IMG/VR virus record: IMGVR_UViG_3300021255_004321 | Location: 27,823 to 91,822 of that record | Strand: one strand, 5' to 3' | Length of the DNA stretch: 64,000 bases | Source of the DNA: a virus | Taxonomy: Duplodnaviria; Caudoviricetes | Part shown: one piece after another, positions 12,527-62,705 of the stretch | How the letters are laid out: every line of letters starts with the position of its first letter | Position numbering within the stretch: position 1 is the stretch's first letter | Position numbers and translations under genes: made by a program | Notes under the pieces: generated by a model | The model's input: only the letters and a program-made list of their open reading frames with translations | Database searches by the model: none | What the model was told of the DNA's origin: nothing

Positions 12527-13099
12527 ATGACTTATCAAAATACGGAGGATTATATAAAAAGACATATTGAAAGGGTCCGTAAGCATCTTTTGACATTTAT
12601 TCTGCTCTTGCAAGTTCGTGCTCAACGCCACGACTACTCTAAATTACAGGAGCCTGAATTAAGTTGGTGGAAAGATATGGACAAGGAGCCTCGTTATCCC
12701 TATGGGTCCCCTCAGTATGTTGCAAAAATGAGAAGATGGAAATATGTGTTTGACCATCATTATAAGTGCAACCGCCACCACCCAGAACACTTTGAATTTG
12801 GCATTCAAGGAATGAACTTAGTCGACGTTATTGAGATGCTTTGTGATTGGATTGGGTATAAAGATTACATATCAATTACTGAAGCGATTTCAACAGTTGA
12901 GCAACAAATGAAAAGATACGGCTTTTCAGATGACTTAAGTTACATTATCAAAAATACTTTAATTGATTACTTCTCAATTATGGGAGGCTTCCATAAAGGT
13001 GAAATGGACCTCCCAGGCGGCTTAGTTGAAGAATTAGGTTATCATAGAGAAAAAGTTAAAGAAGTTGAAGACATACATCATATCGACATCTTGGCATAA
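12527..13099 (+). CDS. DUF5662-family HD-like metal-dependent hydrolase
   Basis: HIERV...HDYSKL...HHYKCNRHHPEHF...MNLVDVIEMLCDW. Confidence 0.75.
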   Translation: MTYQNTEDYIKRHIERVRKHLLTFILLLQVRAQRHDYSKLQEPELSWWKDMDKEPRYPYGSPQYVAKMRRWKYVFDHHYKCNRHHPEHFEFGIQGMNLVDVIEMLCDWIGYKDYISITEAISTVEQQMKRYGFSDDLSYIIKNTLIDYFSIMGGFHKGEMDLPGGLVEELGYHREKVKEVEDIHHIDILA

Positions 13100-13121
13100 C
13101 TAATTATAAAAGGAACCGACT

Positions 13122-13811
13122 ATGGAAAAGAAACAACTTTTTGAAAATATCTTAAAAGAGAATGTTGAACTTGATGATGCTTTCTCACGCTTTAGAGAAG
13201 CATTCCTTGACAATATGAAATCTTATATTGATGAGGAAACAATTGACAACATTTTAAGTTCAGTTTCAGGACGCTGGGCTTTAAGAAGTTATCGCGACTA
13301 TTATGTTGTGTTGAATGTAAAAGGTAAAGGTTGGGGCAACTTCGATCTTTACAATAAAGACAACAGAGCAGCAAGTTGGAAACTTGCCTCAGCAGGATAT
13401 GAAAGTATTATGCAGCACCATCAAGATGATTTCTATCAAGATTGGAATGAAACTTTCAAAGAAGAGTTTGGCGTTGATATTTATGTTTTAGGCCGCAGTG
13501 GCGGATGGTGGGGATTCAAAGAAGATGACTTCCTTGACGAACTTACAGTTGACAATGACAAACTTAGAGAAGTCTTTGACTCAAGATATGCAACATTGTT
13601 CGCAGGTACAGAAGACTCTGACGATGAAGAAGATGTTGCAGTTGAAGTTCTTGAAGATGATTCAGTAAACTTGGCAGAGATTATCAAAATCAACCCTGAG
13701 TTTAAATCTTATATGGAAGACTTTGCAGCATCAGTTGATAAGACATCTGATTACTGGGAGTCTGAAGAGTTCAACGATGAACAGTACAAAGCTGACTTCT
13801 TGCTTAACTAA
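13122..13811 (+). CDS. acidic protein, possible internal head protein
   Basis: N-terminal LFENILKE motif shared with 62474-62656; class C motif upstream; GRSGGW motif. Confidence 0.55.
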   Translation: MEKKQLFENILKENVELDDAFSRFREAFLDNMKSYIDEETIDNILSSVSGRWALRSYRDYYVVLNVKGKGWGNFDLYNKDNRAASWKLASAGYESIMQHHQDDFYQDWNETFKEEFGVDIYVLGRSGGWWGFKEDDFLDELTVDNDKLREVFDSRYATLFAGTEDSDDEEDVAVEVLEDDSVNLAEIIKINPEFKSYMEDFAASVDKTSDYWESEEFNDEQYKADFLLN

Positions 13812-13839
13812 ATAGCTCTCGAAAACAACATTATATATG

Positions 13840-13866
13840 CAAGGGATTTCGTAAGAGGTCCCTTGT
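13840..13866 (+). terminator. hairpin/terminator
   Basis: CAAGGGATTTC-GTAA-GAGGTCCCTTG, GNRA loop with G-U pairs on plus. Confidence 0.6.
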
Positions 13867-13906
13867 ATAGTTTTAAACCGACTAACTAATAATACGAGGT
13901 ATTTTA

Positions 13907-16900
13907 ATGGATGCAAGTGATATTGCTGCTCTTGTAAGTGGAAAAGGCGGCTTATCTCCAGAAGATTCAAACAATTTAGAAAATCTCTCAACAAACAGCA
14001 AAGGCTTTCTCGATGGTATCAATGAGACAAAGTCAATTGCTCAGAAGCAACTTAACTATGTCTCTGACATTGCAGTTGATGTAGGTACTAAAGGTTGGTT
14101 TGCTGAAACATTAGGAAAACTCGTAGATAACTTTGAAGAAAACACTGTAAAAGAAGATGAAGGTAGAACACTCTCTGAAGAGATTAAAGATATATTGTCT
14201 GATATGAAAATCTTCGAAGAGACAACAAACACTGATAATAAAGAAAAGAAAAAGAAAAGAGGTAAAGTTTCAGATAGAACAAAGCTTGATGACTTGAAAT
14301 CTTTGCCATACGAGTTCGCAACACTCGGTGCTGTATTGGCAAATGCCCTTACAAATAAAGATGAAAAGAAAGACAAGAAAGGCGGCATTTCAGGATTCTT
14401 TAAAGGCCTTCTTGAAGGCGTAGGTGGAATCGCTGCTCTCGGTGTAGCTTTGTTCGCATTTGCAGGTGCAACTTTAATATTCAATTTCGTTGACTGGGGC
14501 AAGGCAGTTGTAGGTATGCTTGCATTTACAGTATTCACTATCGGTATAGTTGCGCTTGCCAAAGCTTTGAAACAAGATGAGAAAGATTTAACGAGTTTTG
14601 CAAAAACATCTCTAATGTTGTCAGCGGCTCTTGGAGTGTTTGCTGTTTCATTGTATCTTGTATCTGCTGTCGTAGGTTCAGAAGGCGTTACAATTGCAGG
14701 TAAAGAAATCGTTCCTCCTTTTAGTTTGGGAAATGCAATTGCAGGCACTTTGTTATTCTTAGGATTCTTGACAGGAGTTGCACTTATATCACATATCGTT
14801 GCAAAAGAAAATAAAAGCTTTGTTGAATTCGCAAAAGCTTCATTAGTTCTTTCAGCTGCATTAGGTGTATTCGCAATTTCATTGTATGTAGTTTCTGCTG
14901 TTGTAGGATCACAAGGCGTCATAATTGGTGGAAAGCAAATTGTTCAGCCATTTGACTTAAGTGACGCAATAAAAGGAACTGGGTTGTTCTTAGGATTCTT
15001 ATTAGGCGTTGCAATAATCAGTAATGTAGCAAGTCAAAGTGAAGATGACTTTACAAAGTTTGCAGCTGCATCAATGTTGATGTCAGTTTCATTGGTTTTG
15101 TTCTCATTCTCACTTGCAATCGTTTCAGCTATGTACAGCTCAAAAGAATTAAAGATTGGTGAGTTTGAAGTCCCTAAAGTTGACATCCCAGGTGCTATGA
15201 TTGGCCTCGGCTTATTCTTAGGTTTTATTCTTGCATTTACAGGTATCGCAATTTTAGCAAACTCATTTGGCGGTAACATACTCGCATTCACTGGCGTTTC
15301 ATTGCTTATGTCAGTTTCTTTGATAACATTCTCTGTTGCAATGGCAATTACTGCAGGTGTTGTAAGTGGGCAAGGTGTTTCATTTGGCGATATAAAGTTT
15401 ACACCTCCACAGGATGTTGCAAAAAATGCTTTAATTGGTATTGCTGAGATGGCTGCATTTATGGTAGCATTTGCAGGATTAGGTGCACTCTTCTTAATCC
15501 CATTTGCAGGACAAGCAATGTTAGCAGGTATCGCAATGGCATCAGGTGCATTACTTGCAATTGCAGGAACAACAATTTTATTCTCAAAAGCTATGATGCT
15601 TGCAGGCCTCGCAATGACAGGTGGTGAAGCTGAAATTGGTGGGGAAACATATAAGCTTCCAAAATATAATGAAGCAGCAACAGAAGCAATGTTTGATTTG
15701 ATGGCAGACTTTATTGATATGTTTGCCGACCTTGCTGATGATATTGGTAAGAAAGGGATGAAGGCTGTTGAAAAACTTGGTAAGTCAGTTATTCCTATCA
15801 TCAATGCAATGGACAAAATGGTTGATGTTGTTATTAAAGCAGGAGAAAATTACGATAACATTATAAAGATTGTAAACGGCGACTCAAACGCTCTTGACCA
15901 TTTAATGGACCCAGTTATGTATGTAATCTTGGGCCATAAGCTTGATGGCGAAGGTGGTTTGATGTATGTTGCAAACAATATGAGCAAGTACAGTGCAAAG
16001 GTTCTTAAACTTGTTGGTGAAGCACTTGTTCCTGTTACAGATGCAATGCTCAATATGATTGATGTTGTTATCAAAGCAGCAGACAATAAGCAAAAGATTG
16101 AAGATATAATGTCATCTCAGGGCGGAATGGATATGCTTGACCATTTGATGGACCCTGTTCTTTGGATGATTCTTGGCCATAATATAGACGGTGCAGGTGG
16201 CTTAATGTATGTTGCAACTTATATGAGTTCTTGGAGCGCAAAAACATTAAAGCTCGTAATTGAGTCTATGGTTCCTCTTACAGAAGCAATGAGCAATATG
16301 ATTGACATTGTCTTGAAGGCTGCAACACTTTCTGCAGAAGGTATGACAACAGAAGAACTTGTTGCCCTCGCAATGAACAACCTTAATTTAATTATGGTAG
16401 GAAATGGTGCAATCTCAGGATTCCTTCCAATGTTTGTTGCTACTGCAAGTAAATTAGACGATACATCAAAAGATGCGATAGAAGCAATCAACTCAATGCC
16501 TCCTATGGTACAAGCACTCGGTGATATGATTGGTGTTGTTGCAAAAGCAGGTGAACTTGACCCAGCAAAAATTGATGCAGGTATTTATGGTTTGACTGCA
16601 GCATCAAACTTCTTAAGAACATTCATTAAAACAATTGCTGATATTATCCCAGGCGGAGTTGGCGGCTTCTTTACAAGTATGTTTGAAGGTGACCCACTTG
16701 AAAAAGTTAAAGAAGCTCACAAGTACTTACAGCCGGGCGGTATCTTCTATAACATCTTTGAAGACTTGGCAAATATTGCAAAGAACTTTGATGGAAAAGG
16801 TTTTGAAAATCTTGGTAAAGTATCAATCGTAGGTTCATTTACAACTGATATGCTTAAGGGTTCTGATAACTTCAAAGACATAATGAAGAACATCCAAAAA

Positions 16901-19967: not shown

Positions 19968-20702
19968 ATGATTGAAGCACATAAGTTTGATGGCAGCTTA
20001 AAACTTTACAGAGCAAATATCTACGCAAATGTTAAAAAAGGTGATGACCGTTTACAAGTAAGGATTATGCCTTATATGGCAGGCATCACAGGAGAAGATG
20101 AAGCAAACTTACCTAAATATCCGCCTCTTTATAAAGGCCACGTTATTCGTGGATATGCTGAAACAGATTCACAATCAAATGGTGGTAAAGTTACTTCGAT
20201 ATTTGTTCTTGCTAACGATGACTTTACTGTAGGATATTGTCTTGACCCGATAAATGAGTTTAATGGTGCTCTTAAAGGCGCACTTAAAACATCTTGGAAT
20301 TATCAAGAGACGAAATCAGTTTTGCAAAGATGCGGCTTTATGCCTCAAGAGTTTACTTATGAAAACATTACTTGTGATATGAATGAAAATGGTTCACTCA
20401 TTGAACTTGGAGCATATAATCAACCATTCAAAATTATTATGACTTCAACAGGTGATGTTATTGGTGTTATGGCTCATCGTTGTTTCTTGATGGCTCGTTC
20501 AGGTCCAAAGTCAGGTACCGACTCTTCATACATTGATATAAGACCGACAAGAGTTGAAATTAAATCAAAAGTTGTAGACTTATCAAAATCAGATGCAGTT
20601 ATTTTGGGACACCGTGGTATGAATGTTGTTGCAACATTTGCTGAAAGTGCTGTTCCTTGTGAGGGTGTTAATCTTGCGCCGTGTAAAACAATCAAAGTCT
20701 AA
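19968..20702 (+). CDS. baseplate central spike, gp5/gpV OB-fold-like
   Basis: 'LYRANI...DDRLQVRIMP' N-terminus, beta-rich C-terminus, follows the hub gene. Confidence 0.6.
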   Translation: MIEAHKFDGSLKLYRANIYANVKKGDDRLQVRIMPYMAGITGEDEANLPKYPPLYKGHVIRGYAETDSQSNGGKVTSIFVLANDDFTVGYCLDPINEFNGALKGALKTSWNYQETKSVLQRCGFMPQEFTYENITCDMNENGSLIELGAYNQPFKIIMTSTGDVIGVMAHRCFLMARSGPKSGTDSSYIDIRPTRVEIKSKVVDLSKSDAVILGHRGMNVVATFAESAVPCEGVNLAPCKTIKV

Positions 20703-21021
20703 AAAGAAAACTGCTGCAGCAAAAATGAAAGAAGAGTTTCGTATGACACCTGAATGGTGGGCAATGCGAAAAGAGTTGATTGCTGAACAAAAGAAAGACC
20801 CAGTTACAAATGCCAAACTTTCTCCTAAAGCAAACTGCCATCATCTTGACCAACGAACTGAAAACTATACAAGCACCGACAAAAGACGGTATCTTATGTT
20901 GCAACCGCTTACACACAAGGTTATTCATTTTCTTTACCGCTTGTATAAAAAACAAGGAGAGCATCTTTTCGACACTCTCCGTAACATTTTCAAATTGATG
21001 GATAAGTATTCAAACGATTAG
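20674..21021 (+). CDS. HNH endonuclease-like protein
   Basis: 'FRMTPEWWAMRK...NCHHLD...YLMLQPLTHKVIH'; start uncertain (TTG 20674 after GAGG, or ATG 20725). Confidence 0.55.
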   Translation: MRRVKQSKSKKKTAAAKMKEEFRMTPEWWAMRKELIAEQKKDPVTNAKLSPKANCHHLDQRTENYTSTDKRRYLMLQPLTHKVIHFLYRLYKKQGEHLFDTLRNIFKLMDKYSND

Positions 21022-22715
21022 TTTGGGTACTTTTTCCAGAATGAAGCAGGTGTATTTGCTGCCCAAGCAAACTTTTTCTGCTGTGCTGCATTGTAAATTA
21101 TTCCGATGTCAACTCCCAAATCTTTACAGAAGCTGTATGCAACTTTTGGTGAACTGTAATTCAACTTTGCAGTACCAAGGGCGATGTTCTTTGTTGCCTT
21201 TTTAAGGTCTTTATTTGCTTCAAGTTTCTGAACTCTCAATTCTGCTTTTTCAACCTGAGCCTTGATTTTGTTTTCTCTTTCAGCAATTACATCCAAGAGA
21301 CCTTTAAGTTCTTCACCTGAGTACTTCTTTTTGCAAGCTGCCTTCTGCTTTTTGAGTTTTGCAAGCTGAACTTTTGCTTTTGCAGCGCGGGCTTTTTCTG
21401 TTTCTTTTGCCTTCTTAATTGTTTCGTCAGTCTTATCCATCTGAGTTGCGAAGTTCTTTGCAACATTTTTCTGATGATTAAGTTTTGTTGATACAACCAA
21501 GCAAGCATTGTCGTAAATTGAACGGATTTTCCATTCAGGCATTCCCTTCTTAACTTCAGCTTTCTGAAGTTCCTCAGCAAGAAGCTTTGTTCCGTAAGTT
21601 GTGCGGAAAAGTTTTCCTGTTACATAAGACAGGCAATCTGAAAGGAACTTGTTTACTGTTCCTGCAGAAGCTTTATCAAAAACTCTGTCATTTGGTTTTT
21701 TGTTTGCAACAAAAGTCTTCAAAGCTTTTTCAACATTTGCTGGGATTTCAACTGTGTTGTGGTATCTTACGGTATCTTTTCCAAGGAAGTCAAGTTCCAA
21801 GGTTCCGTTTCCAACCTTGATGTTCTTTACGAGGAGCTGGGAAGCGCCTACTGTTCCGTTTTCAAACTTATCAAGCTTTTCAGTGCCAATACGAATACCT
21901 GTGCGAAGTATCAACCAAGAAACAACGGCTTCCTGCTTGTTTGCGTTTACTCCGTCTTCGATATATTTTTCCATTATCGGCCAATCTTTTGCAAGCTGCT
22001 GAGCTTTTTCATACTTGTGTTTGTCAGCATCCTGCTTTACTGTTGAAGTTGCCCCGAAGCCATACTTCTTTTTAAGAGTTGCATAACCTTCTCCGATATG
22101 AACATCAAAATAAGTTGCAACATAAGCTTCACGGTTTTCAACAACTGCCTTCCACTTGTGTCCTGCAGGAGGCTGAGGGATTTTTGATTTGTCACCGATG
22201 TAATTGATTGTGACATCTTCAGGCTGAATTGCCCACTTCCACATTCCGTTCATTGGGCATTTGCCGCGGCCAACATACACTCCTTCAGGCTCAAGAACAT
22301 ATCCGCCGATCTGCTGTTCAACACCATCAAGATAAATTACACCGTATTCTTTTTTGATTTTTTCGTTTTCGAGTTTCTTTGCTTCACGGGCTTCTTTTGT
22401 ATTTGCAAGCTTCTTTGCTTCTTTAATCAATTCGTTTTCTGTCCGCATTGCTTCGATTGTCTTTTCGTATCCTTCAGGGAAAGTCTGAGGCATTCCTGCA
22501 GGAACATTCTTGAGGAATGTTTTTGCAAAGTTTTTCTGAAAGTCGGTACGATTTCGATAGTCGTCGCCAAGAACTGCCCAGTGCCAAAGCATATCTTCAG
22601 AAAGATAATCAAGCTTTATTCCATTGACAAAAAACTTGCCTTTATATTCATAAGGTTTTGGGAAAAGTGGTCCCTTGTGTTCGATTGTCTTAAATTTTGC
22701 AGCTTTTTTAGCCAT
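21018..22715 (-). CDS. top1: DNA topoisomerase IB, long eukaryote/archaeal type
   Basis: IEHKGPLFPKPYE, EPEGVYVGRG, IQPEDVTIN, PPAGHKWK, IRIGTEK, TVGAS, DFLGKD, KLFRT, LNHQK, coiled-coil linker, IALGTAKLNY: colinear with human Top1 motifs. Confidence 0.95.
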   Translation of the reverse strand: MAKKAAKFKTIEHKGPLFPKPYEYKGKFFVNGIKLDYLSEDMLWHWAVLGDDYRNRTDFQKNFAKTFLKNVPAGMPQTFPEGYEKTIEAMRTENELIKEAKKLANTKEAREAKKLENEKIKKEYGVIYLDGVEQQIGGYVLEPEGVYVGRGKCPMNGMWKWAIQPEDVTINYIGDKSKIPQPPAGHKWKAVVENREAYVATYFDVHIGEGYATLKKKYGFGATSTVKQDADKHKYEKAQQLAKDWPIMEKYIEDGVNANKQEAVVSWLILRTGIRIGTEKLDKFENGTVGASQLLVKNIKVGNGTLELDFLGKDTVRYHNTVEIPANVEKALKTFVANKKPNDRVFDKASAGTVNKFLSDCLSYVTGKLFRTTYGTKLLAEELQKAEVKKGMPEWKIRSIYDNACLVVSTKLNHQKNVAKNFATQMDKTDETIKKAKETEKARAAKAKVQLAKLKKQKAACKKKYSGEELKGLLDVIAERENKIKAQVEKAELRVQKLEANKDLKKATKNIALGTAKLNYSSPKVAYSFCKDLGVDIGIIYNAAQQKKFAWAANTPASFWKKYPN

Positions 22716-22727
22716 ATTTTCGACTCC

Positions 22728-22765
22728 TTACAGTAATAATATAAAGAATTATTGGTAAAAGTTTA
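22728..22765 (-). promoter_or_regulatory. class A (putative early) promoter of top1
   Basis: TAAACTTTTAC-N9-TTTATATTATTACTGTAA. Confidence 0.7.
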
Positions 22766-22787
22766 AAATAAATTAACTAAAATTTGC

Positions 22788-22876
22788 TTTGACAAAATGA
22801 CAAAAAATGTCAAAATAAAATTTGAACTATAATGGAGGGATAGAATATTAAGAATTGAAGGTAAATTTATTATAAA
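22788..22876. repeat. conserved intergenic element, copy 2 (inverted)
   Basis: TTTGACA-N13-TGTCAAA, then TGTCAAAATAAAATTTGAACTATAATGGAGGGA = reverse complement of 12438-12470. Confidence 0.85.
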
Positions 22877-22948
22877 GTTAATATATCTTTATAAAACTAA
22901 TTATTTTGAAATACACTTAAACGGTAAATTTACCTGTGGAGAAAAATA

Positions 22949-24724
22949 ATGAAATTGAAATCAAAAAAGAAAACACTTCCATTTAAAATTAAATGGAGAA
23001 CACGCAAAGATGAAGGCGCACTTGAACGCCCAACAATAAAAACAACTGAAGTTCTTATCAGCGGAAAGATTTTATGTTGTATCTTGCTCTCAATAATCTC
23101 AGCATTTATTGATATTGTATTCTTTAGTGGATTGTCAAAGTCGGGTTATCCATTTTTCGGAGTATATGTTCCTGCTGCAATAATTCTTTCTATTATGTCA
23201 ATCGGTTTCTCAGGAAGCAAGTTCTTTGTTGCGATGCAACTTGCTGCAATAAAAGAAATCGGCGGTCGTTTGAAAGATATGCTTGGTGAAAACTACAAGC
23301 ATCGTCTTGTGTGGTTAAAATTAAAATGGAATCTTATTCATAAGTTTTTGATAACTATTTCAATCATAACTTCTATTTCATTGTCAGTTATCACAATCGG
23401 AAACGGTGTTCGTCAGATGGAGCAGAACATCAAAAATCAAACAATTGATGCGCAGTATTTGATTGATTTGAAAACATCAATGAGAACAAATACAACTGAC
23501 AAACGAGAAGCGGCGAAAGCAAATATCGAAGGCGCAAAGTCAGCACAATCTTCAGCAAAAGAAGCAGTAGATAAGTATTGGACTTTACTTGATGATTACC
23601 AAACTAAGATAAGAGCAGTTAGAACAGATGACTCATTGACAGACGAAGATAAAGATGCTCAAATTGCAAAGATTAAAAAAGAAGCAGTAAATTCTTTACC
23701 TGTAGTTACAAGCAAGAATGTTGAGTATATTTCAAAGCCTGAATTTGAAAGAGAGTTTGCAAAAATTACAAAAGCAAATGAAACTATTGATACATCTTCT
23801 TTATATGAAGAAGCAATTGCATACGATGAAGCTGAACTTAATTCTTATATCATAGCTTTGCAGGATAAAGAGTATCGTACTCCTGATGGACAACTTATTC
23901 AGTTTATCAATGAAGACGGCACACCTGTAAACAGAGAACTTGCCATAGCTCGTTTGCAAAACTCAATTATGGCTTGGCAGTCAGATACAGGAGACGCAGG
24001 TCCTTCTTCAAAAGTATTTACTTTAGTTGCAACATATCTTAAGACTGATGAAAAAGCAGGCGGTATGGGAACATCAGAAGTTATTATGATGGTTCTTATT
24101 ATGGTCTTTGGTATTGTTCAGGAATTTATTATTGCTGCATTTACTCCAAGAGCAACAATAAGTCGTAAGATGCTTTCTCAGTTTAGCGAATATCTTTACG
24201 GTGTTGACATCAACAGATTTATGCTTAAGACTTATAAAGATTACTATGACTTAGGTTTGTTGAAGTCTGATGAATATGAAAGAAAATGTAAGAAAGCAGT
24301 AGGACTTCTTGATAACAATGTTGATGCAATTATCGCAAAATATAAAGGTGAAGATGTTGAGAATCCTGAAGTCGTAAGACTTGAAGCAGAAGTTGATAAG
24401 TATAAACAGCAGGCAGAAGGTTATTTAGCAACATCTGCAGACTTTCACAACAAGCTTATGAAAGAAACAGAAAAGAATGAACAGTTGACAAATGATATGT
24501 TGGCAAAAGACGACCTTGTTCAGGATTTGAAGTATAAGCTTGCTCAAAAAGAAAATGAAATTGCAAACCTTAAAGTTGTCGAAGCGCCTGCAGTTGTTGA
24601 GGCAAAGGTTGAGCCAGTAAAAGTTGAAAGAAAGATTGAAAGAAAGATTGTAAAAGAGCCAAAAGAACAGGAATTCTCATCAGCAGTCGATGAGAAAGCA
24701 AAAGAAGTAGAGGCATTGTTGTAA
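22949..24724 (+). CDS. multi-pass membrane protein with long coiled coils
   Basis: Three N-terminal hydrophobic helices, a large soluble loop, another TM segment (VIMMVLIMVFGIV), C-terminal coiled coil. Confidence 0.75.
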   Translation: MKLKSKKKTLPFKIKWRTRKDEGALERPTIKTTEVLISGKILCCILLSIISAFIDIVFFSGLSKSGYPFFGVYVPAAIILSIMSIGFSGSKFFVAMQLAAIKEIGGRLKDMLGENYKHRLVWLKLKWNLIHKFLITISIITSISLSVITIGNGVRQMEQNIKNQTIDAQYLIDLKTSMRTNTTDKREAAKANIEGAKSAQSSAKEAVDKYWTLLDDYQTKIRAVRTDDSLTDEDKDAQIAKIKKEAVNSLPVVTSKNVEYISKPEFEREFAKITKANETIDTSSLYEEAIAYDEAELNSYIIALQDKEYRTPDGQLIQFINEDGTPVNRELAIARLQNSIMAWQSDTGDAGPSSKVFTLVATYLKTDEKAGGMGTSEVIMMVLIMVFGIVQEFIIAAFTPRATISRKMLSQFSEYLYGVDINRFMLKTYKDYYDLGLLKSDEYERKCKKAVGLLDNNVDAIIAKYKGEDVENPEVVRLEAEVDKYKQQAEGYLATSADFHNKLMKETEKNEQLTNDMLAKDDLVQDLKYKLAQKENEIANLKVVEAPAVVEAKVEPVKVERKIERKIVKEPKEQEFSSAVDEKAKEVEALL

Positions 24725-25461
24725 TGAAAGAAAGTGAAGTATTAGAAAAGTTTGAGCTCTTCAAGAATGGACTTATCAAAAAGAATACAAGAATTGGAGA
24801 ACTTGAGCAAGAAGTAAGTAACTTAAAACAGGAATGCAGCGACAAGTCTTTATCAATCAATCAACTTGTTCTGCAAAATGAAGAAAAGGCGAACGCAATT
24901 GAGCAGTTGCGTTCAGATTATAACAACCGCGCCACTGAGCTTGAAAATAAATATAACGACTTGAAAGAAAAGACTTATAAAACAATCAAGCATTTGGTTG
25001 AGGATGTTATCGAAGCTCAAGAAAAGAAGATTGCAGACTTACAAAAAGAAATTATGCGGCTTGAAAACAGAAAAGAAAAACACGACACAACTGAAGATGT
25101 TGATGTTATGATGACAAAAATTCATACGACTGATGTTGATAAGTCAGCAGTTGATGAAACAATGGAGTCCATAAAAAGAGGTGAAAAACTTTTCAAGCAG
25201 TATTCGTTTGGTGTTGCAAACAAAGAAACTGTAAAAATGTTTGAAACATTTATTCATAATATATATGAACAAGCGCCTTTAATCGGTAGATTTTACATTC
25301 TTAATAACCCATTCAACTGTATGAATGGGCTTGATAAAGACGCTTGTGCCTCTTTACTTCAGCATTTAATTCAAGAAAGGATTGTTGAAACAAGAGGTGA
25401 TGAATATATATCACAATACCTTGAAGAAGACGTTATCAAAGAAATCACAAAAGAGTGTTAA
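24724..25461 (+). CDS. coiled-coil protein with possible C-terminal winged helix
   Basis: Heptad N-terminal half; C-terminal 'DKDACASLLQHLIQERIVETRGDEYIS'; TAATG coupling to the upstream gene. Confidence 0.65.
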   Translation: MKESEVLEKFELFKNGLIKKNTRIGELEQEVSNLKQECSDKSLSINQLVLQNEEKANAIEQLRSDYNNRATELENKYNDLKEKTYKTIKHLVEDVIEAQEKKIADLQKEIMRLENRKEKHDTTEDVDVMMTKIHTTDVDKSAVDETMESIKRGEKLFKQYSFGVANKETVKMFETFIHNIYEQAPLIGRFYILNNPFNCMNGLDKDACASLLQHLIQERIVETRGDEYISQYLEEDVIKEITKEC

Positions 25462-25470
25462 TATCTTTAT

Positions 25471-25830
25471 ATGGAAAAATTAGCAATGGATAGAGACACA
25501 AAAGAACTCCTTGAAGACGTTTGTTCTTTGTTTGGTGTCAAAGCTGATATTATAAAAGACGTTTGGGAATATACAATGATTGTTTGGCTATTAAAGCTTG
25601 CCGACTCAAACGCAAACTTGAAAAGAATAAAAATTCCTTATGTAGGCTCTGTTGGTCTTCGTTTCCTTGGAGAAAAAATGGGAGATGAAAAGATTGATGC
25701 CGATTATGATGCATTTCTTGCATTAAATGAGAACTTTAAGGACGTTCTTAAAACAATCAAAAACAACGGTTCAGATGAGCTTACTGAACTTATTCAACAA
25801 AAAATTAAAAAATTAGCCTCTCAAGTATAA
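25471..25830 (+). CDS. possible HU/IHF-like DNA-binding protein
   Basis: Two helices then 'RIKIPYVGSVGLR', resembling HU 'VxLxGFGxF'. Confidence 0.4.
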   Translation: MEKLAMDRDTKELLEDVCSLFGVKADIIKDVWEYTMIVWLLKLADSNANLKRIKIPYVGSVGLRFLGEKMGDEKIDADYDAFLALNENFKDVLKTIKNNGSDELTELIQQKIKKLASQV

Positions 25831-28266: not shown

Positions 28267-31200
28267 ATGATGAAAGAAGGTCTTACATTTATAAGTGAAA
28301 GAACAGGTCAGCTTAGATATTCTGACATTGCGACAGAAGAACAGTGGATTCAGCAAACAAGTACATACATTCCAATTCAAACTATCAAAAGAGGACAGCC
28401 TGTTTCAATTGCAACAAAAGAAGACTTGGAAATTGTTGCAAATGGTGATGAAGCTTTGTATGAAGCACTCCTTAATTCATCAGACTCTTATGTAGTTTTA
28501 ACAAACCCAACAAGACATACAAACACAATCGGTCTTGCTTTGGAATATACTGACGGACATCACGAGCTTGTTGATGGAAAACTTGAAACTGCTCCAAAGA
28601 TTCATATTATCAACAATGGTAAATACATTGAAGATGCCAACTATTATGCACAGGCTTTTACAGAAGAAGATTCTTATACAGTTGCAGGTGATGCCGACTC
28701 AGAATATGAGGAATACTGGCCGCCATTCTTTGATGATTATGAAAACTCAATTGGTAAGAAAATCTATGTAAAAGGTTCAGCTGACGGTGAACTTACACTT
28801 GTAAAAGAAGAAGCATACCTCGCTCACAACAATGTTATCGTTCTCGGTTTCGTAACAGACGCTAAACTCAAAGATAAAGAAAATGAAAAAGATGTTGGCG
28901 CAATCGAAGTTCAGGTACAAGGCGATGACCGCGGCCTTATTGATGCAACAATCTTTGAAGCTGTTGTAGGTGAAGACTTTGTTATAGGTGATACAAAAGT
29001 TCAAGCAAACGGCGAAACAAACTGTAAGACAAAAGTATTTGCTTTAGGTTCAGAAGATGATGAAACATTTGAGTTCTCATTCAACATCAATCAGCTTGTT
29101 AATACTCCAATGCCTAAAGGTTTTATCGCTCTTCAAAGAATTGACGGTAAAACATACATCATTCAGACAAATGGCGAAATAAGTGAAAGCCTTCTCAATG
29201 AAGGTGAAGCTTATGATTATAATGACCGCGCCTTCTATCAAGTTGCAAAGTATTATGCTGCAAATTATAATGAGTCAATCGAAAAAGTAGACCTTGCTGT
29301 TACTGAAGCATCAGCAACAAACTTGATTTCAAAGTTGGAAGCTGAACTTAAAAATGCAATGGCTTACATCTCACAAGGCGAAAATGTTTCATTAAAAGAT
29401 GGCCATACATCAAACATTACAGACCTTGATTTTGATGAGTCTGAACTTGGCACAAAGCATCGTCTTATTTGTAGAGCAAACGACATTGGTGGTTACTTTG
29501 ATGTTTATGTTTCATCAAACTTAACAGGTATTTTATCTGACCTCAATATCAAGTCACACGGTTCATTCTTCAACAGAGGATATGCTGTTCTTGCAGACAT
29601 TCGTAATCCTAAGAGACAGAACATTATTGGTATTTACAACTCAGGACATACTGGACTTGTAAAGAAAGGTGAAAATGCAATTTTCTTAAAGCAGGGTCTT
29701 TTCAGAGATGACTCAAATCCTTTTGAAGTAGGTGAAAGATACTATCTCGGTTCACACGGTAACATTTTCAAAGTTCCTCAAGAATACTACAACTCAATCA
29801 TCTCAATCGGTTATGCACAATATAAAGATGCTTTAATTGTCGATTGTTGTGATGTAAGACAATATAACAATGGTGACCTTCCTGTAGGCTATATGAAGCC
29901 TTCTATCAAAGGTGAAGCTGAATTCGGCTTCTTGTTGATGAACGGTCAGCCTGTAGAATATGAAGGACACGAACTTCTTTATAAGAGACTTAAGAACTGG
30001 TATGATGAAGCTGACTTGAAGCTTGGTTCATATTCTTTCGGTGAAGTAGAGAAAGCAGGATTTATTATCCCAAAAGTTCAGTATCAAAAACATACAGGTG
30101 AAGAAGAGTCTTATACTCCTGCACAGATTAAGTGGCTTGCAGAAGGCGTTTATAAAGAAATGCCAAGAACACCTTTTGTTCGTCGCTTCGTTGATATTGA
30201 TTATCCAAAGCAAGTTGTTGATAACAACGGAGAAGAAGAGGAAATCATCTTAGCACATCAGGCAAGAATACCTGACATTGACATTACTCCTCTTATGATT
30301 TATGGTCCTGAGGAAGACCGTTTGCAAATCCCAGATTTGGAGAATCTTGACATCAAGTTCTTCGCTGACTTGTCAGATGGCAATGTTCCTGAATGGGTAC
30401 AAATTGACCCAGGCTTCCATTCATTTGATGCACTTACATACTTTGGTTATAAATGGACTGTAACACAAACTAATGAGCCTTCTGACTCAAATCCTTACGG
30501 AACTTGGGTATTGAGAGCAGCTTATAACGGAACACAGGGTCCTAACGAAGTTGATAACGATGATACTGCTATGGGTATTTGTTATCAAGCTGACCCATTC
30601 TCTCCACCTGTTTCACTTGCAGGTCGTCGTGCAAGAATCTTTGTTGTAAAACACGATTACTACTCAAGACAGTTTGATGTTGAAGCTCTTTTCAAAGATT
30701 ATGTAAAAGAGTCTTTGGTTGATGCAACTGACCAACCTTGGGTAAGCCACGCAATCTCAGGTAACGCTGTTCGTCAGGACCTTTACAGAAGAGTTTACAC
30801 AAAAGACTTATTACTTGGTTCAACTGAAAGAAGAGCTGATGTAAATGGTTATATTCAGTCAATCAGATTGAACGGTGAAGCTCTTGAGAACGAAGATGAG
30901 TTGGCTGCATATACTCTCAACACAAATCTTCGTTTGAAGAATCCTGCAGCTGCAAACGGCGCATTCCTTGATTACTATAACGGAATATTAAAGTATTATT
31001 ATCAGAATGAAACTGAAGATAGCGCAATCTCACATAAAGCAGACTTACAAAAAGACATCTTAAATGAGCCTTACGCATTGCTTCCTTCTTATATGTTCAA
31101 AGCTCATAAAGAGTTGTTGGTTAAAAATGCAACAGCAAAAGACTTTACAGATCATCCTCACGGAATTGTAAATGATGGTTATGAAGGCAACCTTAATGCA

Positions 31201-34200
31201 AAAACTTTACAATCTGCAAACTTGGGTTACCCACAGCATATCTTGTCAAACAATGTAACAGAAGATGTAAATGAAGTTTATGTTGAAAAAGAGAATGCTG
31301 CAATTGCAATCACAATCCCTTATACACAAAAGACTACTACAGGTGATTACAGAACTCGTCTTGGTAACTTGACAGAATACAGAGACGCAGACGGTAACCT
31401 TATAAGACATACAATCAAAACTTATGGTAACACATCTGAACTTGTAGAAGATATTGATATTCGTAATGGCTTTGATTACGTTCAGAGAATACGCGGTGGT
31501 GTTGGCAGCAACAAGTCAATGAATATCAAGTATGGGTTCTCTGACGACGAACACGATATAACTTTTGAAGATGATAACGGAAACCCATTAAGCTTGTATG
31601 GTAACTTTGTTCAAACATCTTCAATTAAAAAGAAGTATGTTCTTTCAAGATTTGAAGGTAAGAACTCTCCTGCTATCGGAAGTGAGTTCTCAGATAAATA
31701 TATCGGTGACGGTGAAGAGCAAGTATTAAATGAAGCTTTGCAGGCAATTTATGAAATGCCTCTTGCAACATTCAAGTATAACAGAGAATACTTATCTGAA
31801 GACCCTTGGTACAAGAGATACTTCGGTATTATCGTTGAAAGAATTGCTGCAACAAAAGAAAACTTTGCAAGTGATGCAGAGTTGACAAACAAGACTGCAT
31901 TAGACGAAGTTGAGTATACTTATACTGATGAAGAGAAAGCTTCTATTGCAGAATACCTCAAACTTGTAACTGACAACCCAGAACAGGGTATGCGTGAGTC
32001 AACTGTTATTGGTATTCTTTTGAAAGCTGCAAAAGAAACACAGGAAAGATTGCTCAACCTTGAAGTATCAACATACGGTAAGGATTCTCCTACACTCCCA
32101 GGTGAGGACGAAAAGAATCCAAACTTTACAGCAAATGACCAAAAGTCAACAATCGCAGGTCTTAACCGTTTGGTTAAAGCATTGTGTCGTGAAGTGTTCC
32201 AAAATGCTGACCCAACAAATATCAATGAACTTGGCGGTTGGTCTGAAGATGGCGAAAACTATTCACGCCTTGACTTGATTGATAAAGAAGTAAACGGTGA
32301 AGCTGCAAAGGATGATAACCAAGAAAGAATCTTCCTTACAAAGGATATTGGTAAAACATATCCTGATGTTGCAGATATTACAGAAGAAGCTACACCTAAT
32401 GAGGCGCTTGTTCCTGATACTGCAAATGATAACGACTTCGGCGGCAAAGATGCAGTTAAGTACCCAACAGATACAACATATACTTCAAACCCAGAAGATA
32501 TTGATGACTTTGATGGTATTAACGATGCAATCAACAGAATCGTAGCTAAACTCAATCAACTCACAATTAACATCAACGGTGAGGACGACATCAAAAAGAA
32601 TCCAAAGAAACTTGATTACATTCGTGGAACTTTGGTAACACTTCTTCGTGATGTTTACTCTGATGGTTCAGTTGATGATGTTGAAAATGGCATATATGTT
32701 AAGAAAGGCCTTTCAAGAATTGATAAGATTCTTCAGGACCTTTACAACTTCGATTTAACTTACGGTGCAACAAGAGCAAAAGTAAATACATACAACGGCA
32801 AAGACTTGTATGGTGTAGAAAATAATGAGTCAGCAAGTACAGAAATGATTGACTCATTCAGTTCTCGTTCACCTGAAAAGATTGAAGATATTTTTGGCAA
32901 GGCATCAATTCTTGATGTTATAATTGAACTTCTCTCAGGTAATGAAAACAACTTGGTTAAGACAAAGTTGACACCTTGGAAAGACCTTGCAAACAATGAA
33001 AACAATTGGAAAATAAACGCAGACAACACAGTAGCAACAACATACGATAATACTGCAGAACTTGAAAACAATAAAAACTCTCGTAATCATTATACTGTTC
33101 TTCAGAGACTTGACGACATTGAAAAAGCATTGACTTTGATGTTCTCAAGATTTGCAAACAAAACTGATTTCACAAAAGATGCTCCTCGTATCGGTGAAGG
33201 CGCTTATGACGGTGTAACATCAGTTGATGATTATATGAAGTTCTTGAGACGCAACTCAGGACTTTGTTTCCACAGCGCAGGCTTGTATGCAGATAAAGTT
33301 GAAAACGATGAAAGAACTTCTGCAGCCAAAGCAATTACTGCTGAAGATTGGGTAAGACCTGTTCACGACACAGTAGACAACTTCGATGTTTACGATACAA
33401 TCTATGATGCAATCAAACGTATTAAGAACAGTGAAATGAACTTGGGCTACAACAATGCTAAGCTCGGTACTGATTACGATACATATAAGAACGGTAACGC
33501 AAGAATTACAAAAGATGCTTACGAAACTCTTGCTCCAAACGGTGAGGTTCCAACTCCTGATTATACTGTAACATCTGATATGAGAGCAGTTCTTAAATTG
33601 CTCTACGGTTCTGACTTGGCAAATGCAGATGCTTCAGATAACAAGACAGGTTCAGTACACTTCAATGTTACTGATGAAGCAAGTGACAACTTCAAGAACT
33701 CTCCTAACGGTGTTTCAGTAATTGATGCATTATATAAGATGTTATATAATGTGCCTCAAGCTTACAACTATGATGCAGGCGCAGGTACATCATCAAGATT
33801 ATCAGGAACAGTTGATGCTATATTTGAAAATGCAAAAGGCTTTGACCCAGCAGTTCCAAAAGCTCATATTGCTGTAGGTGAAAGTGAGTCTCCTGTAGCA
33901 GACGGACATCGTAAAGGCTTCATCTTGCAAAATAAAGATGGTAACGCTTACAGAAAGAATCGTATTGATGTTCTTGAAGATTGGGTAAAAGCTATTTATA
34001 GATATGTTGGCTTTGGTAGCACAGAAGATCCATATTACTTCATCGGTGACCTTCACCTTACTTTCGAAGATAGAGATGATGGCGATAAAGATGTATTCGT
34101 AAATGGAAAACAGTACTGCACAACAGCTTACAACAAGAAGTACATCACAACTTCTGGTAACTATACACTTGCAGAGATTGCTTTACAATCTTACTACAAC

Positions 34201-35301
34201 ACACTTAAACTTGAAAAAGTATTAGGTGATGATCCTAACAATTACCCAGTTGATTGGAACTATGTAATCCCTGCAGAAAGCGAAGACTTCAAGATTAAGT
34301 CAAAAGTTGAAACAGACCCAGATAAGGTTAAAGCAACAGGTGTACACGCTGCTCTTAATAAGCTCTACTCATATATCAATAAACTTGATGTTGCAGCAAT
34401 TGATATTGATGAAAGACTTCAGCAATATGCAAGAGACAACGATAAAGAAGTTAAAGATATTAAAGATGAAATTGGAGCTATCAAAGATGAGATGGGCACA
34501 AAGACTGCAGAGTCACCTATCGAAGCAGAAACTCTTTGGGGAGCAATTGAAGAGACAAATGTTGCAAACCGTTTGGTTGGCGATGTTGATACAGACCTTA
34601 AAGAAAAAGATGGCGATACTGTTCTCAAAGACGACGGAAAGCAACAGCCTGACAATAAAGTTGTAACACCTGCTGCTATGAAAGCTTATGTTGCAGACAT
34701 CGTAGAACAGTTGAGAAAAGAATACGATGAAAAGTGTCAGCAAGTAAAAGAACAAGCAATTATCCTTGCATACCTCAAATGTAGTAACATTACAGTAATC
34801 TCAGATAAGGCAATTCAAATTGACCATAACGGCGAAAATGAGGACTTCATTTGGGAAGAAGGACATACACCTAATGTAGGTACTCTCGAAGTTGTAGGTC
34901 CTGTATCAAAGAGATTCGGTAAAAAGATGTGCAAGATCCGCATCATCGATAATGAAGATAACATTACCTATGAAGCTTGGTTTGATTATGTTGAAAAAGA
35001 ATATAGCAACAGCTCATCTTACAAGCAAAACTTCCTCTTAGGAACAATTGATGTAGGTAACCGCTTAACTCCGGTTATTACAGAAGATGACATCCAAGGA
35101 AATAACTTGAATCCTGTTGTAGAGGAAACTGTTGAGACTGCAAATAACTTGTCAAGCGTTATCACAGATGATGTTGAAAAAGCTAATAACTTGACTCCTG
35201 TTATTACTGAAAACAATCTCACGGTGAATAACTTGACTGTAGGCGATGATAGTGCGACAGATAATTCAACAGGTAGCGAAGATAGCAGTTCAGGAGAATA
35301 A
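28267..35301 (+). CDS. large tail fibre/appendage protein with tail-collar domain and internal S74-like chaperone
   Basis: 'LPVGYM...GFLLMNGQ...LYKRL' (collar, ~29880); 'SSIKKK...ATFKY...FGIIVERI...ILLKAAKETQERL' (S74-like, ~31618-32063). Confidence 0.7.
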   Translation: MMKEGLTFISERTGQLRYSDIATEEQWIQQTSTYIPIQTIKRGQPVSIATKEDLEIVANGDEALYEALLNSSDSYVVLTNPTRHTNTIGLALEYTDGHHELVDGKLETAPKIHIINNGKYIEDANYYAQAFTEEDSYTVAGDADSEYEEYWPPFFDDYENSIGKKIYVKGSADGELTLVKEEAYLAHNNVIVLGFVTDAKLKDKENEKDVGAIEVQVQGDDRGLIDATIFEAVVGEDFVIGDTKVQANGETNCKTKVFALGSEDDETFEFSFNINQLVNTPMPKGFIALQRIDGKTYIIQTNGEISESLLNEGEAYDYNDRAFYQVAKYYAANYNESIEKVDLAVTEASATNLISKLEAELKNAMAYISQGENVSLKDGHTSNITDLDFDESELGTKHRLICRANDIGGYFDVYVSSNLTGILSDLNIKSHGSFFNRGYAVLADIRNPKRQNIIGIYNSGHTGLVKKGENAIFLKQGLFRDDSNPFEVGERYYLGSHGNIFKVPQEYYNSIISIGYAQYKDALIVDCCDVRQYNNGDLPVGYMKPSIKGEAEFGFLLMNGQPVEYEGHELLYKRLKNWYDEADLKLGSYSFGEVEKAGFIIPKVQYQKHTGEEESYTPAQIKWLAEGVYKEMPRTPFVRRFVDIDYPKQVVDNNGEEEEIILAHQARIPDIDITPLMIYGPEEDRLQIPDLENLDIKFFADLSDGNVPEWVQIDPGFHSFDALTYFGYKWTVTQTNEPSDSNPYGTWVLRAAYNGTQGPNEVDNDDTAMGICYQADPFSPPVSLAGRRARIFVVKHDYYSRQFDVEALFKDYVKESLVDATDQPWVSHAISGNAVRQDLYRRVYTKDLLLGSTERRADVNGYIQSIRLNGEALENEDELAAYTLNTNLRLKNPAAANGAFLDYYNGILKYYYQNETEDSAISHKADLQKDILNEPYALLPSYMFKAHKELLVKNATAKDFTDHPHGIVNDGYEGNLNAKTLQSANLGYPQHILSNNVTEDVNEVYVEKENAAIAITIPYTQKTTTGDYRTRLGNLTEYRDADGNLIRHTIKTYGNTSELVEDIDIRNGFDYVQRIRGGVGSNKSMNIKYGFSDDEHDITFEDDNGNPLSLYGNFVQTSSIKKKYVLSRFEGKNSPAIGSEFSDKYIGDGEEQVLNEALQAIYEMPLATFKYNREYLSEDPWYKRYFGIIVERIAATKENFASDAELTNKTALDEVEYTYTDEEKASIAEYLKLVTDNPEQGMRESTVIGILLKAAKETQERLLNLEVSTYGKDSPTLPGEDEKNPNFTANDQKSTIAGLNRLVKALCREVFQNADPTNINELGGWSEDGENYSRLDLIDKEVNGEAAKDDNQERIFLTKDIGKTYPDVADITEEATPNEALVPDTANDNDFGGKDAVKYPTDTTYTSNPEDIDDFDGINDAINRIVAKLNQLTININGEDDIKKNPKKLDYIRGTLVTLLRDVYSDGSVDDVENGIYVKKGLSRIDKILQDLYNFDLTYGATRAKVNTYNGKDLYGVENNESASTEMIDSFSSRSPEKIEDIFGKASILDVIIELLSGNENNLVKTKLTPWKDLANNENNWKINADNTVATTYDNTAELENNKNSRNHYTVLQRLDDIEKALTLMFSRFANKTDFTKDAPRIGEGAYDGVTSVDDYMKFLRRNSGLCFHSAGLYADKVENDERTSAAKAITAEDWVRPVHDTVDNFDVYDTIYDAIKRIKNSEMNLGYNNAKLGTDYDTYKNGNARITKDAYETLAPNGEVPTPDYTVTSDMRAVLKLLYGSDLANADASDNKTGSVHFNVTDEASDNFKNSPNGVSVIDALYKMLYNVPQAYNYDAGAGTSSRLSGTVDAIFENAKGFDPAVPKAHIAVGESESPVADGHRKGFILQNKDGNAYRKNRIDVLEDWVKAIYRYVGFGSTEDPYYFIGDLHLTFEDRDDGDKDVFVNGKQYCTTAYNKKYITTSGNYTLAEIALQSYYNTLKLEKVLGDDPNNYPVDWNYVIPAESEDFKIKSKVETDPDKVKATGVHAALNKLYSYINKLDVAAIDIDERLQQYARDNDKEVKDIKDEIGAIKDEMGTKTAESPIEAETLWGAIEETNVANRLVGDVDTDLKEKDGDTVLKDDGKQQPDNKVVTPAAMKAYVADIVEQLRKEYDEKCQQVKEQAIILAYLKCSNITVISDKAIQIDHNGENEDFIWEEGHTPNVGTLEVVGPVSKRFGKKMCKIRIIDNEDNITYEAWFDYVEKEYSNSSSYKQNFLLGTIDVGNRLTPVITEDDIQGNNLNPVVEETVETANNLSSVITDDVEKANNLTPVITENNLTVNNLTVGDDSATDNSTGSEDSSSGE
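35059..35241 (+). repeat. 14-aa coding tandem repeat NNLxPVIT(E/D) at the fibre C-terminus
   Basis: NRLTPVITEDDIQG/NNLNPVVEETVETA/NNLSSVITDDVEKA/NNLTPVITE/NNLTV/NNLTV. Confidence 0.75.
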
Positions 35302-62686: not shown

Positions 62687-62705
62687 AATGTATTTTGAGG
62701 TGAAA

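Follow-up and report, generated by a model that had tools for sequence, protein, structure and literature searches.

A long-form type IB topoisomerase gene carried by a huge phage of ruminant guts

A gene for a long-form type IB topoisomerase (TopIB) occupies positions 21018..22715, on the minus strand, of the 64,000-nucleotide stretch of viral DNA analysed here (the window), which corresponds to bases 27823-91822 of the 91.8-kb IMG/VR record G000. The open reading frame (ORF), taken from the ORF list and its translation, starts with ATG and encodes 565 amino acids (aa) plus a stop codon. Its product matches three Pfam families, all far above the curated cut-offs. Residues 7-202 (22110..22697, minus strand) match Topoisom_I_N (PF02919, E value 6.3e-38, 130.9 bits against a cut-off of 25) and form the CAP / DNA-binding clamp region; residues 224-442 (21390..22046, minus strand) match Topoisom_I (PF01028, E 3.1e-47) and form the catalytic core with R275, K313, R371 and H414; and residues 494-559 (21039..21236, minus strand) match Topo_C_assoc (PF14370, E 1e-17), the C-terminal domain. 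The core is followed by a linker of two long antiparallel helices, residues 422-464 and 467-507 (21195..21452, minus strand), which were delimited by DSSP on a predicted structure and align with the linker region of the human enzyme. The codon of Tyr520, which aligns with the human catalytic tyrosine, is at 21156-21158 (minus strand).

A single colinear alignment, obtained by phmmer searches of the PDB, joins residues 5-554 to human Top1 (1nh3/1a31/1k4s, E 1.3e-69), a sequence match that lies far beyond chance. Further PDB matches were CsTOP1 of Caldiarchaeum (6z01, E 2e-56) and the large subunit of the Leishmania enzyme (2b9s, E 4e-47). The protein contains the motifs IEHKGPLFPKPYE (residues 11-23), EPEGVYVGRG (142-151), QPEDVTIN (164-171), PPAGHKWK (182-189), DFLGKDTVRY (309-318), LFRT (369-372), NHQK (413-416) and LGTAKLNY (513-520). 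In the alignment, human R488, K532, R590, H632 and Y723 correspond to R275, K313, R371, H414 and Y520 of the phage protein, and the human drug contacts R364, D533 and N722 to R150, D314 and N519; the standard human residue numbers are used, and the one check made on them was against chain 1a31, whose 591 residues are numbered 175-765. At the position of human F361 the phage protein has a Y. All 37 compact relatives in the alignment keep R275, K313, R371, H414, Y520, R150, D314 and T515 unchanged, and residues of the DNA clamp are conserved among them besides those of the active site; N519, the equivalent of N722, is variable (N in 16, S in 11 and A in 10). Between this gene and the copy on a sister genome described below there are 76 synonymous and 14 non-synonymous differences, with a ratio of non-synonymous to synonymous substitution rates of 0.042; the gene is intact and under purifying selection. 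The first-pass annotation of the window had described an ORF colinear with human Top1 that keeps the R-K-R-H-Y pentad and the equivalents of R364, D533 and N722 and has a coiled-coil linker. This description was borne out down to the exact coordinates and every motif that it quoted, and the profile search that it had proposed, for Topoisom_I_N plus Topoisom_I, returned Topo_C_assoc as well as both of these families.

The structure was predicted with AlphaFold2 on the alignment of the 37 compact relatives, which gave a mean predicted local distance difference test score (pLDDT) of 93.9 and a predicted template modelling score of 0.85; the blocks of linker helices reached a pLDDT of 84-96. In Foldseek searches, the best PDB matches of the model were DNA-bound forms of human Top1 (1k4t/1rrj/1sc7), with template modelling (TM) scores of 0.85-0.86 and a root-mean-square deviation of 3.4-3.7 Å over ~580 columns at a sequence identity of ~32%. 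The short TopIB enzymes of variola virus and Deinococcus were aligned over ~240 columns (TMq 0.25-0.31), and XerH and P2 integrase were weak matches. The structural match to CsTOP1 6z01 was low (TM 0.48-0.50) because the crystal, as a passage of PMC8748870 describes it, holds the open apo form, whereas the model is in the closed form. A structure search of BFVD returned whole-length matches only in giant viruses (TMq 0.77-0.83).

The gene is provided with expression signals of a bacterial type. A Shine-Dalgarno (SD) sequence, AAGGAG, was read directly at 22724..22729 (minus strand), 8 nt before the ATG. A phage promoter-like element of 40 nt, TTTAAACTTTTAC-N9-TTTATATTATTACTGTAA, is located at 22728..22767 (minus strand); a sigma-70-like scan also picks TTTAAA-18-TATATT there. 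The arrangement TTTAAACTTTTAC-N9-TTTATATTATTAYTGTAA is found at three sites, one of them ~13 nt upstream of the TopIB SD sequence, and the window contains three exact copies of its 11-mer core, each on the minus strand (526, 12388 and 22755). When aligned, the three copies have 13 + 18 conserved positions at a fixed spacing, and each is located just upstream of an SD sequence and a start codon. With one mismatch allowed the 11-mer was not enriched (6 found, a number reached by 18 of 100 shuffles), and the case therefore rests on the three extended exact copies. As a motif, the element that had been called a "class A" promoter is thus real; the early expression that had been ascribed to it would be no more than a possibility. 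A terminator-like hairpin plus T-tract is present at 20946..20980 (minus strand), 38 nt after the stop codon, with a 10-pair stem, five GC pairs and the tail TTGTTTTTTA; by consensus match only, the region contains six terminator-like sites against 2.0 ± 1.2 in shuffled sequences. The SD sequence, the promoter-like motif and the hairpin make the gene look like a monocistronic unit, set between plus-strand operons.

A weak hint of transcription comes from bovine-gut RNA libraries, in which two runs of one study yielded contigs of 1520 and 1750 nt that cover 21005-22498 and 21005-22707 at ~95% identity; two short contigs identical at 100% were found in a third run. Cover by these libraries outside the TopIB gene is sparse, and the RNA runs contain only 0.09-0.14 of the sampled words of the query.

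To which genome the gene belongs can be judged from related records. Record G000 is called viral by both IMG/VR and CheckV, the latter rating it as 31% complete. The TopIB is present at 98% identity in two more IMG/VR records, G001 (188.7 kb, 65% complete) and G002 (106 kb, 36% complete), and several studies of the bovine and the sheep gut have metagenomes that contain the stretch itself, which is also covered by a DNA run of another study. A sister contig of 306,108 bp, C130, is contained in a metagenome-assembled genome (MAG) of GTDB (G003) and is colinear with the whole of record G000, to which it is 82-93% identical in nucleotides. An overlap of 141 bp between the two ends of the contig indicates a closed circle of ~305,967 bp; its content of guanine plus cytosine (GC) is 37%. 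Under genetic code 11 it contains 350 ORFs that make up 91.6% of the sequence, and an SD core is located upstream of 27% of the crude ORF starts, against 1.9% of random 17-mers. Among the products recognised by PHROG or Pfam are NrdD, a recombinase like UvsX, a clamp loader of the DNA_pol3_delta2 family, a prohead protease of ClpP type (E 3e-27), a helicase, an exonuclease, an HNH endonuclease, a protein resembling SbcC and a family-A polymerase in pieces; scans of 20 further ORFs with PHROG and Pfam were mostly blank. A 736-aa ORF has Portal_T4 in 29 of 30 Atlas neighbours at 0.97, and its Pfam match to Portal_T4 is sub-threshold in all three genomes. The circular sister, the enrichment of SD sequences, the coding density, the T4-type portal signal, UvsX and the bacterial-type clamp loader together support the earlier assignment of the carrier to the bacteriophages.

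A flagellin gene is present on G000 at 13037-14809 (L116:13037-14806, minus strand), ~13-15 kb before the start of the window (Flagellin_N, E 3e-42; Flagellin_C, E 2e-26), and is adjoined by a gene whose product belongs to the FlaA family of outer-layer proteins of the flagellar filament (E 3e-10). FlaA is known as a family specific to the flagella of spirochaetes. The FlaA/FlaB genes therefore hint at a spirochaete host, possibly Treponema-like, a lead that comes from the FlaA family alone.

Searches of C130 and G001 with PF00521 (GyrA/ParC/gp52), PF01131 (type IA) and PF00204 (GyrB) gave no match, while other contigs of the MAG did match. Within these three families, searched at E<=1e-3, the TopIB is the only topoisomerase recognised on C130. 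We also considered C130 as a cellular replicon of the phylum to which the MAG is assigned. Only that MAG among 401 genomes has Topoisom_I_N, and C130 is therefore regarded as a mis-binned phage. Likewise, a related contig labelled Patescibacteria has five of its ten other ORFs in common with the phage and is therefore phage DNA.

A word-indexed protein search found 39 relatives of the TopIB, 30 of them full-length at 47-97% identity and all from metagenomes; one copy at NCBI, in a Bacteroidales MAG, is named "hypothetical protein". In an exhaustive search of 1.84 billion representatives, 2016 proteins reached E<=1e-3 and 409 of these E<=1e-30, and the top scorers were compact proteins of ~540-590 aa, ahead of eukaryote-like ones of 700-1250 aa. 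Scans of IMG/VR with three alignments gave 62 loci, which were sorted by SD frequency: 38 loci, including all giant-virus MAGs, were at 0-5%, 23 at 12-47%, and one was ambiguous at 11%. Besides the window's own, 19 contigs of the prokaryote-virus type (55-386 kb; duplicates and two partial matches excluded) carry a whole or split long TopIB, which is thus recurrent in uncultivated viral contigs. Within flanks of up to 10 kb on each side of the TopIB, loci of the window clade defined below have 3-11 other ORFs in common with C130 at 24-74% identity, and those of a second group, A5, have 0-2. The divergence of the TopIB among the related phages (30-63%) parallels that of the other common genes (24-74%), which fits long vertical descent within phages.

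Neither megablast with a 6-kb segment nor tblastn with the full-length protein gave a match in 50,697 deposited phage records (the window's own record was possibly excluded). When tblastn was run with the catalytic half alone at E<=1, just three weak records appeared, PaBG twice and BCSR5. The suspicion that long TopIB might already be common in described phages therefore does not agree with the deposited records. A 792-aa neighbour also had no tblastn match in deposited phages, and the UvsX-like protein matched 749 phage records, all at <60% identity and at ~26-28% among the matches listed, which did not point to a close relative in culture. PHROGs contains no family for long TopIB. NCBIfam has no model naming it, which, together with the label "hypothetical protein", may explain why long phage TopIB went unnoticed. 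Full-text literature searches, which included jumbo-phage overviews of 2026, brought up no phage with a long TopIB, with the proviso that the gene tables in the supplements of PMC11662467, PMC12880540 and PMC13037316 could list one.

In several relatives the gene is split. On the 91-kb IMG/VR contig L006 (10010-12520) it is cut after the equivalent of approximately residue 303, and a 234-aa GIY-YIG-like ORF on the opposite strand lies between the halves. At L041 (9986-11735) the enzyme is encoded by adjacent ORFs of 306 and 263 aa, separated by a 37-nt spacer that holds an SD sequence, and at L040 (2147-3085) the N half stands alone within the stretch examined. The split falls inside the catalytic core, near residue 303 and just before the catalytic Lys; in accordance with this, six N-halves and four C-halves among the best 150 representatives end or begin at query residues 300-309.

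The phylogenetic position of the protein was determined in three trees. In a FastTree analysis of 156 rows, from which rows of <480 aa had been excluded, the TopIB and other compact proteins formed a clade of 51 rows, which a support of 98 set apart from the remainder of the tree. A quick IQ-TREE run with LG+G4 on 119 chosen rows gave a clade of 43 rows (support 100) with the window protein and six phage loci whose context was checked; the sister of this window clade was a nine-row group with four other prokaryote-virus loci, and the CsTOP1-like clade, the eukaryotes and the giant viruses were held together at 95. A careful LG+G4 tree of 64 chosen rows was rooted with six short bacterial TopIB. 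These came from a survey of 301 Pseudomonadota genomes, 50 of which encode the catalytic domain; four of ten candidates (L104, L105, L111 and L112) were dropped since the strand or the start of the ORF looked wrong. The outgroup branch has a total length of ~2. Supports in the rooted tree were 100/99 for the window clade, 96/100 for eukaryotes plus giant viruses, 99/99 for the archaeal clade, 97/93 for A5, 90/89 for the window clade plus A5, and 54/32 at the base. The archaeal clade was identified by scores against CsTOP1, which were 538 and 363 bits for two representatives versus 195 bits for the phage TopIB. The phage clade comprises 43-51 representatives at the 50% identity level, and none of its end branches was flagged as long. 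The window clade consists of compact proteins that have so far been seen only in metagenomes, and its members with checked context are carried by related huge phages.

The protein is thus not nested among the short TopIB, nor within the eukaryotic plus nucleocytoplasmic large DNA virus (NCLDV) clade or the archaeal clade. Of the two origins that the first-pass annotation had left side by side, the deep viral lineage is in keeping with a clade of its own, while a cross-domain acquisition, at least as a recent event, is not supported because the protein is nested in neither cellular clade. Judged from these trees, none of the sampled eukaryotes, giant viruses or archaea was the source of a recent capture of the gene.

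Some contigs fall elsewhere in the trees. L047-L053 (IMG/VR, 62-189 kb, GC 22-42%) are of the prokaryote-virus type, have almost no flanking genes in common with this phage, and carry long TopIB of the A5 group and of small groups that sit near the base of the archaeal/eukaryal side. Locus L042 (9992-11401; IMG/VR, 55 kb, GC 56%) encodes a 469-aa TopIB with all three Pfam domains inside the CsTOP1-like clade; its Topo_C_assoc begins 10 residues after the core, which leaves little or no linker. The contig has SD signals and no other gene in common with the phage; it may belong to a virus of archaea, or be a piece of archaeal DNA that was classified as viral.

The phage enzyme resembles the Topo70 form of human/eukaryotic Top1 (1K4T, 1A36, 1RRJ, 1SC7) in domain order, whole-length fold, pentad, equivalents of the drug contacts and linker. 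It differs in that it has no long charged N-terminal extension (565 aa against 700-1250 aa), in that its gene is preceded by an SD sequence and the promoter-like motif, and in its position outside the eukaryote plus NCLDV clade (96/100). The archaeal enzymes (Thaumarchaeota, Aigarchaeota and Bathyarchaeota), as described in passages of PMC4824112, PMC8748870 and PMC8371274, are also compact (~520-560 aa), likewise have no eukaryotic N-terminal extension, come from prokaryotes and have the same three Pfam domains. Against CsTOP1, however, the phage protein scores 195 bits, lower than its 238 bits against human Top1, while archaeal-type representatives score 363-538 bits against CsTOP1, and the phage protein lies outside the CsTOP1-like clade (99/99). 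The long enzymes of giant viruses (Dasosvirus and Marseillevirus LCMAC in BFVD; GVMAG contigs) are likewise virus-encoded and match over the whole length of the structure, but they group with eukaryotes (96/100), lie on contigs without an SD signal and have ~28-33% identity to the phage enzyme. With the short TopIB of variola virus (2H7G) and Deinococcus (2F4Q/3M4A) the fold of the catalytic domain and the chemistry are common; these proteins of ~310-350 aa are without Topoisom_I_N, linker and Topo_C_assoc, all three of which the phage enzyme has.

Proteins of similar length are encoded by two cultured jumbo phages, Pseudomonas phage PaBG ("DNA topoisomerase I", 562 aa; L114, 56209-57897) and Burkholderia phage BCSR5 (577 aa; L115, 114471-116204). 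Both have a Topoisom_I core, but in the C-terminal half only (E 5e-15 and 2e-21), and are without Topoisom_I_N and Topo_C_assoc; their ~300 N-terminal residues have no Pfam match. By tblastn they are reached at E 3e-3 and 4e-4 over 55-57% of the catalytic half, and the PaBG protein has a TMq of 0.41 at 16% identity. They represent a different, third architecture of phage TopIB-like proteins.

PMC4824112 restricts long TopIB in prokaryotes to the Thaumarchaeota and assigns a short version to viruses and bacteria; PMC8748870 and PMC8371274 state the same distribution and add Aigarchaeota and Bathyarchaeota. The archaeal Cs-TopIB is described as resistant to camptothecins in PMC4824112. Because this homologue is resistant, the N722 equivalent varies and F361 is replaced by Y, it is not safe to infer camptothecin sensitivity of the phage TopIB from its sequence.

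We consider it highly probable that the gene encodes a complete, active long-form TopIB of a presumably tailed jumbo phage of ~306 kb, that the enzyme serves this phage as its own swivel, and that it belongs to an old phage-borne branch. By homology with human TOP1 and CsTOP1, the clamp would close round duplex DNA, and Tyr520, helped by R275, K313, R371 and H414, would attack one strand and produce a nick with a 3'-phosphotyrosyl bond. The downstream duplex would then rotate under the friction of clamp and linker, so that positive or negative supercoils are relaxed without ATP, after which the strand would be religated. Relaxation of both supercoil signs through the 3'-phosphotyrosyl intermediate is predicted to be independent of ATP and Mg. 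In this way the enzyme would give the phage a swivel of its own during replication and transcription of its very large genome, a role suggested by the absence of any further recognisable topoisomerase from the complete sister genome, and it would have been inherited within a group of related huge phages instead of having been captured recently. The enzymatic activity, the biological role and the host are thus what we infer from the analysis.

Several observations weigh against parts of this interpretation. The gyrase, topo IV and topo I of the host could serve the phage, so that "sole swivel" is a deduction, and the statement that the TopIB is the sole topoisomerase applies to the three Pfam families searched. 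Activity across the phage branch is predicted from homology, and the split genes of L006 and L041 could mean relaxed constraint in some lineages. On the phage contigs, terminase (PF03237, PF17289, PF03354) and Phage_sheath_1 had no match, and nor did the Gp23 capsid, for which the search had no match in the control genomes either. Related contigs carry conflicting MAG labels (Ca. Fimenecus, Bacteroidales, Patescibacteria), and genomic context was checked for only six of the 43 rows of the window clade plus the window. RNA-library contigs can carry DNA and show neither strand nor level. Finally, support for the deep node is low (54/32), so that the tree would be compatible with phages first as well as with cells first, and all trees were made with LG+G4 or FastTree, methods that are more prone to grouping long branches together.

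The alternatives differ as to which part of this evidence they question. That a eukaryotic, giant-virus or archaeal Top1 was wrongly joined to phage DNA might be suspected of a metagenomic contig whose nearest characterised homologues are eukaryotic and archaeal. Such a chimera, and with it the mis-assembly junction that the first-pass annotation had asked to be checked, is effectively refuted: four independent assemblies (G000, G001, G002 and C130 of G003) hold the TopIB in the same context with 98% protein identity and colinear flanks, and a 1661-nt contig of a DNA run from another study extends from 20944 across the 3' end of the gene. In addition, the GC of the region around the gene (0.35-0.38) equals that of the window, the bacterial SD sequence and the phage's own repeated promoter-like motif stand at the gene, and the protein is only 32% identical to the giant-virus copies and ~32% to human Top1. 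A carrier that infects eukaryotes or archaea, in which a long TopIB would be less surprising, is very improbable as well. Many IMG/VR contigs with long TopIB are giant-virus MAGs, the TopIB of viral contig L042 does fall inside the archaeal clade, and the terminase and capsid families tried had no match here; against this, SD cores precede 21-47% of ORFs in window-type loci versus 0-5% in 38 NCLDV-like loci, the coding density under code 11 is that of C130 given above, and the genome encodes bacterial flagellin N and C domains, FlaA, the DNA_pol3_delta2 clamp loader, a family-A polymerase, the T4-type portal signal and a UvsX-like recombinase. By their family definitions, the flagellin and clamp-loader types are bacterial and not archaeal.

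If the carrier is a phage, its TopIB could still be a cellular TOP1, archaeal or eukaryotic, that was captured and then spread, in which case the phage branch would be derived and its depth an artefact of fast evolution. The weak root of the long-TopIB tree, the fast evolution common in viral genes and the long-branch effects possible in LG+G4 and FastTree trees speak for this course of events. We regard it as unlikely, since the phage clade is nested in no sampled eukaryotic, NCLDV or archaeal subgroup, is itself very diverse at the 50% identity level, has no unusually long end branches, and shows the parallel divergence of TopIB and other phage genes described above. The fold, on the other hand, might serve another task, such as site-specific recombination or genome resolution, or the protein might be a virion-packaged enzyme as in poxviruses. 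TopIB and tyrosine recombinases do share chemistry and fold, as reflected in the weak matches to XerH and P2 integrase, and the gene is located between plus-strand operons of large proteins whose function is unassigned and which may be structural. This we hold to be quite improbable: the fold equals that of the relaxing enzyme over its whole length, including the clamp and linker that control rotation, Pfam detects no second recombinase-type domain, and the DNA-clamp residues are conserved along with the active site. An active relaxing enzyme of an old phage-borne branch is therefore the reading that we retain.

A large and diverse phage-borne branch would change the stated distribution of long TopIB (eukaryotes, their giant viruses and some archaea), and no description of such a branch was found in the literature searched. 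It would also enter, as a third party, the debate on the origin of eukaryotic TOP1, which PMC2621148 uses as evidence for a common ancestor of archaea and eukaryotes. A more far-reaching proposal, which we rate as doubtful, is that huge tailed phages are the main and oldest reservoir of long TopIB, their clades (the window clade, A5 and smaller groups) exceeding the archaeal and eukaryotic clades in sequence diversity, that the eukaryote/archaeal enzyme could have had a viral donor, and that the enzyme is the phage's sole topoisomerase and makes replication of the 306-kb genome independent of host gyrase; a viral donor has been argued for eukaryotic Topo IIA (PMC9752973). On the practical side, the branch offers compact, probably soluble, mesophilic TOP1 homologues, including natural two-piece forms, and both kinds could serve mechanistic and drug-binding studies. 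It also suggests how some jumbo phages may manage supercoiling without a type II enzyme of their own.

Some features of the surroundings remain to be described. A 132-aa ORF on the plus strand (window 20623-21021), which has no PHROGs family, converges on the TopIB gene, with a 4-nt overlap at the stop codon of the latter; visual comparison suggests that a 116-aa ORF near the TopIB in L006 (13184-13534) resembles it. Many near-identical copies of the flagellin exist on contigs of ~300 kb. The family-A DNA polymerase is distributed over at least two separate ORFs, L117:1746-2795 and L117:3620-5677 (G000 21746-25677, before the window), and the piece that matches the C-terminal Pfam part lies upstream of the exonuclease and the N-terminal polymerase piece. 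An NrdD-like anaerobic ribonucleotide reductase gene at window 62688-63998 runs off the window and is full length in the sister (L024:14611-16983; PHROG 487, E 4e-170); it fits an anaerobic gut host. Giant plus-strand ORFs of 2344 and 3910 aa occupy window positions 28267-35301 and 42731-54463, respectively, and a 1788-aa ORF in L039 weakly matches the 2344-aa ORF. A 304-aa ORF on the minus strand (window 7210-8124) shows a weak match to the aminoglycoside-phosphotransferase/choline-kinase fold (APH, E 1e-6).

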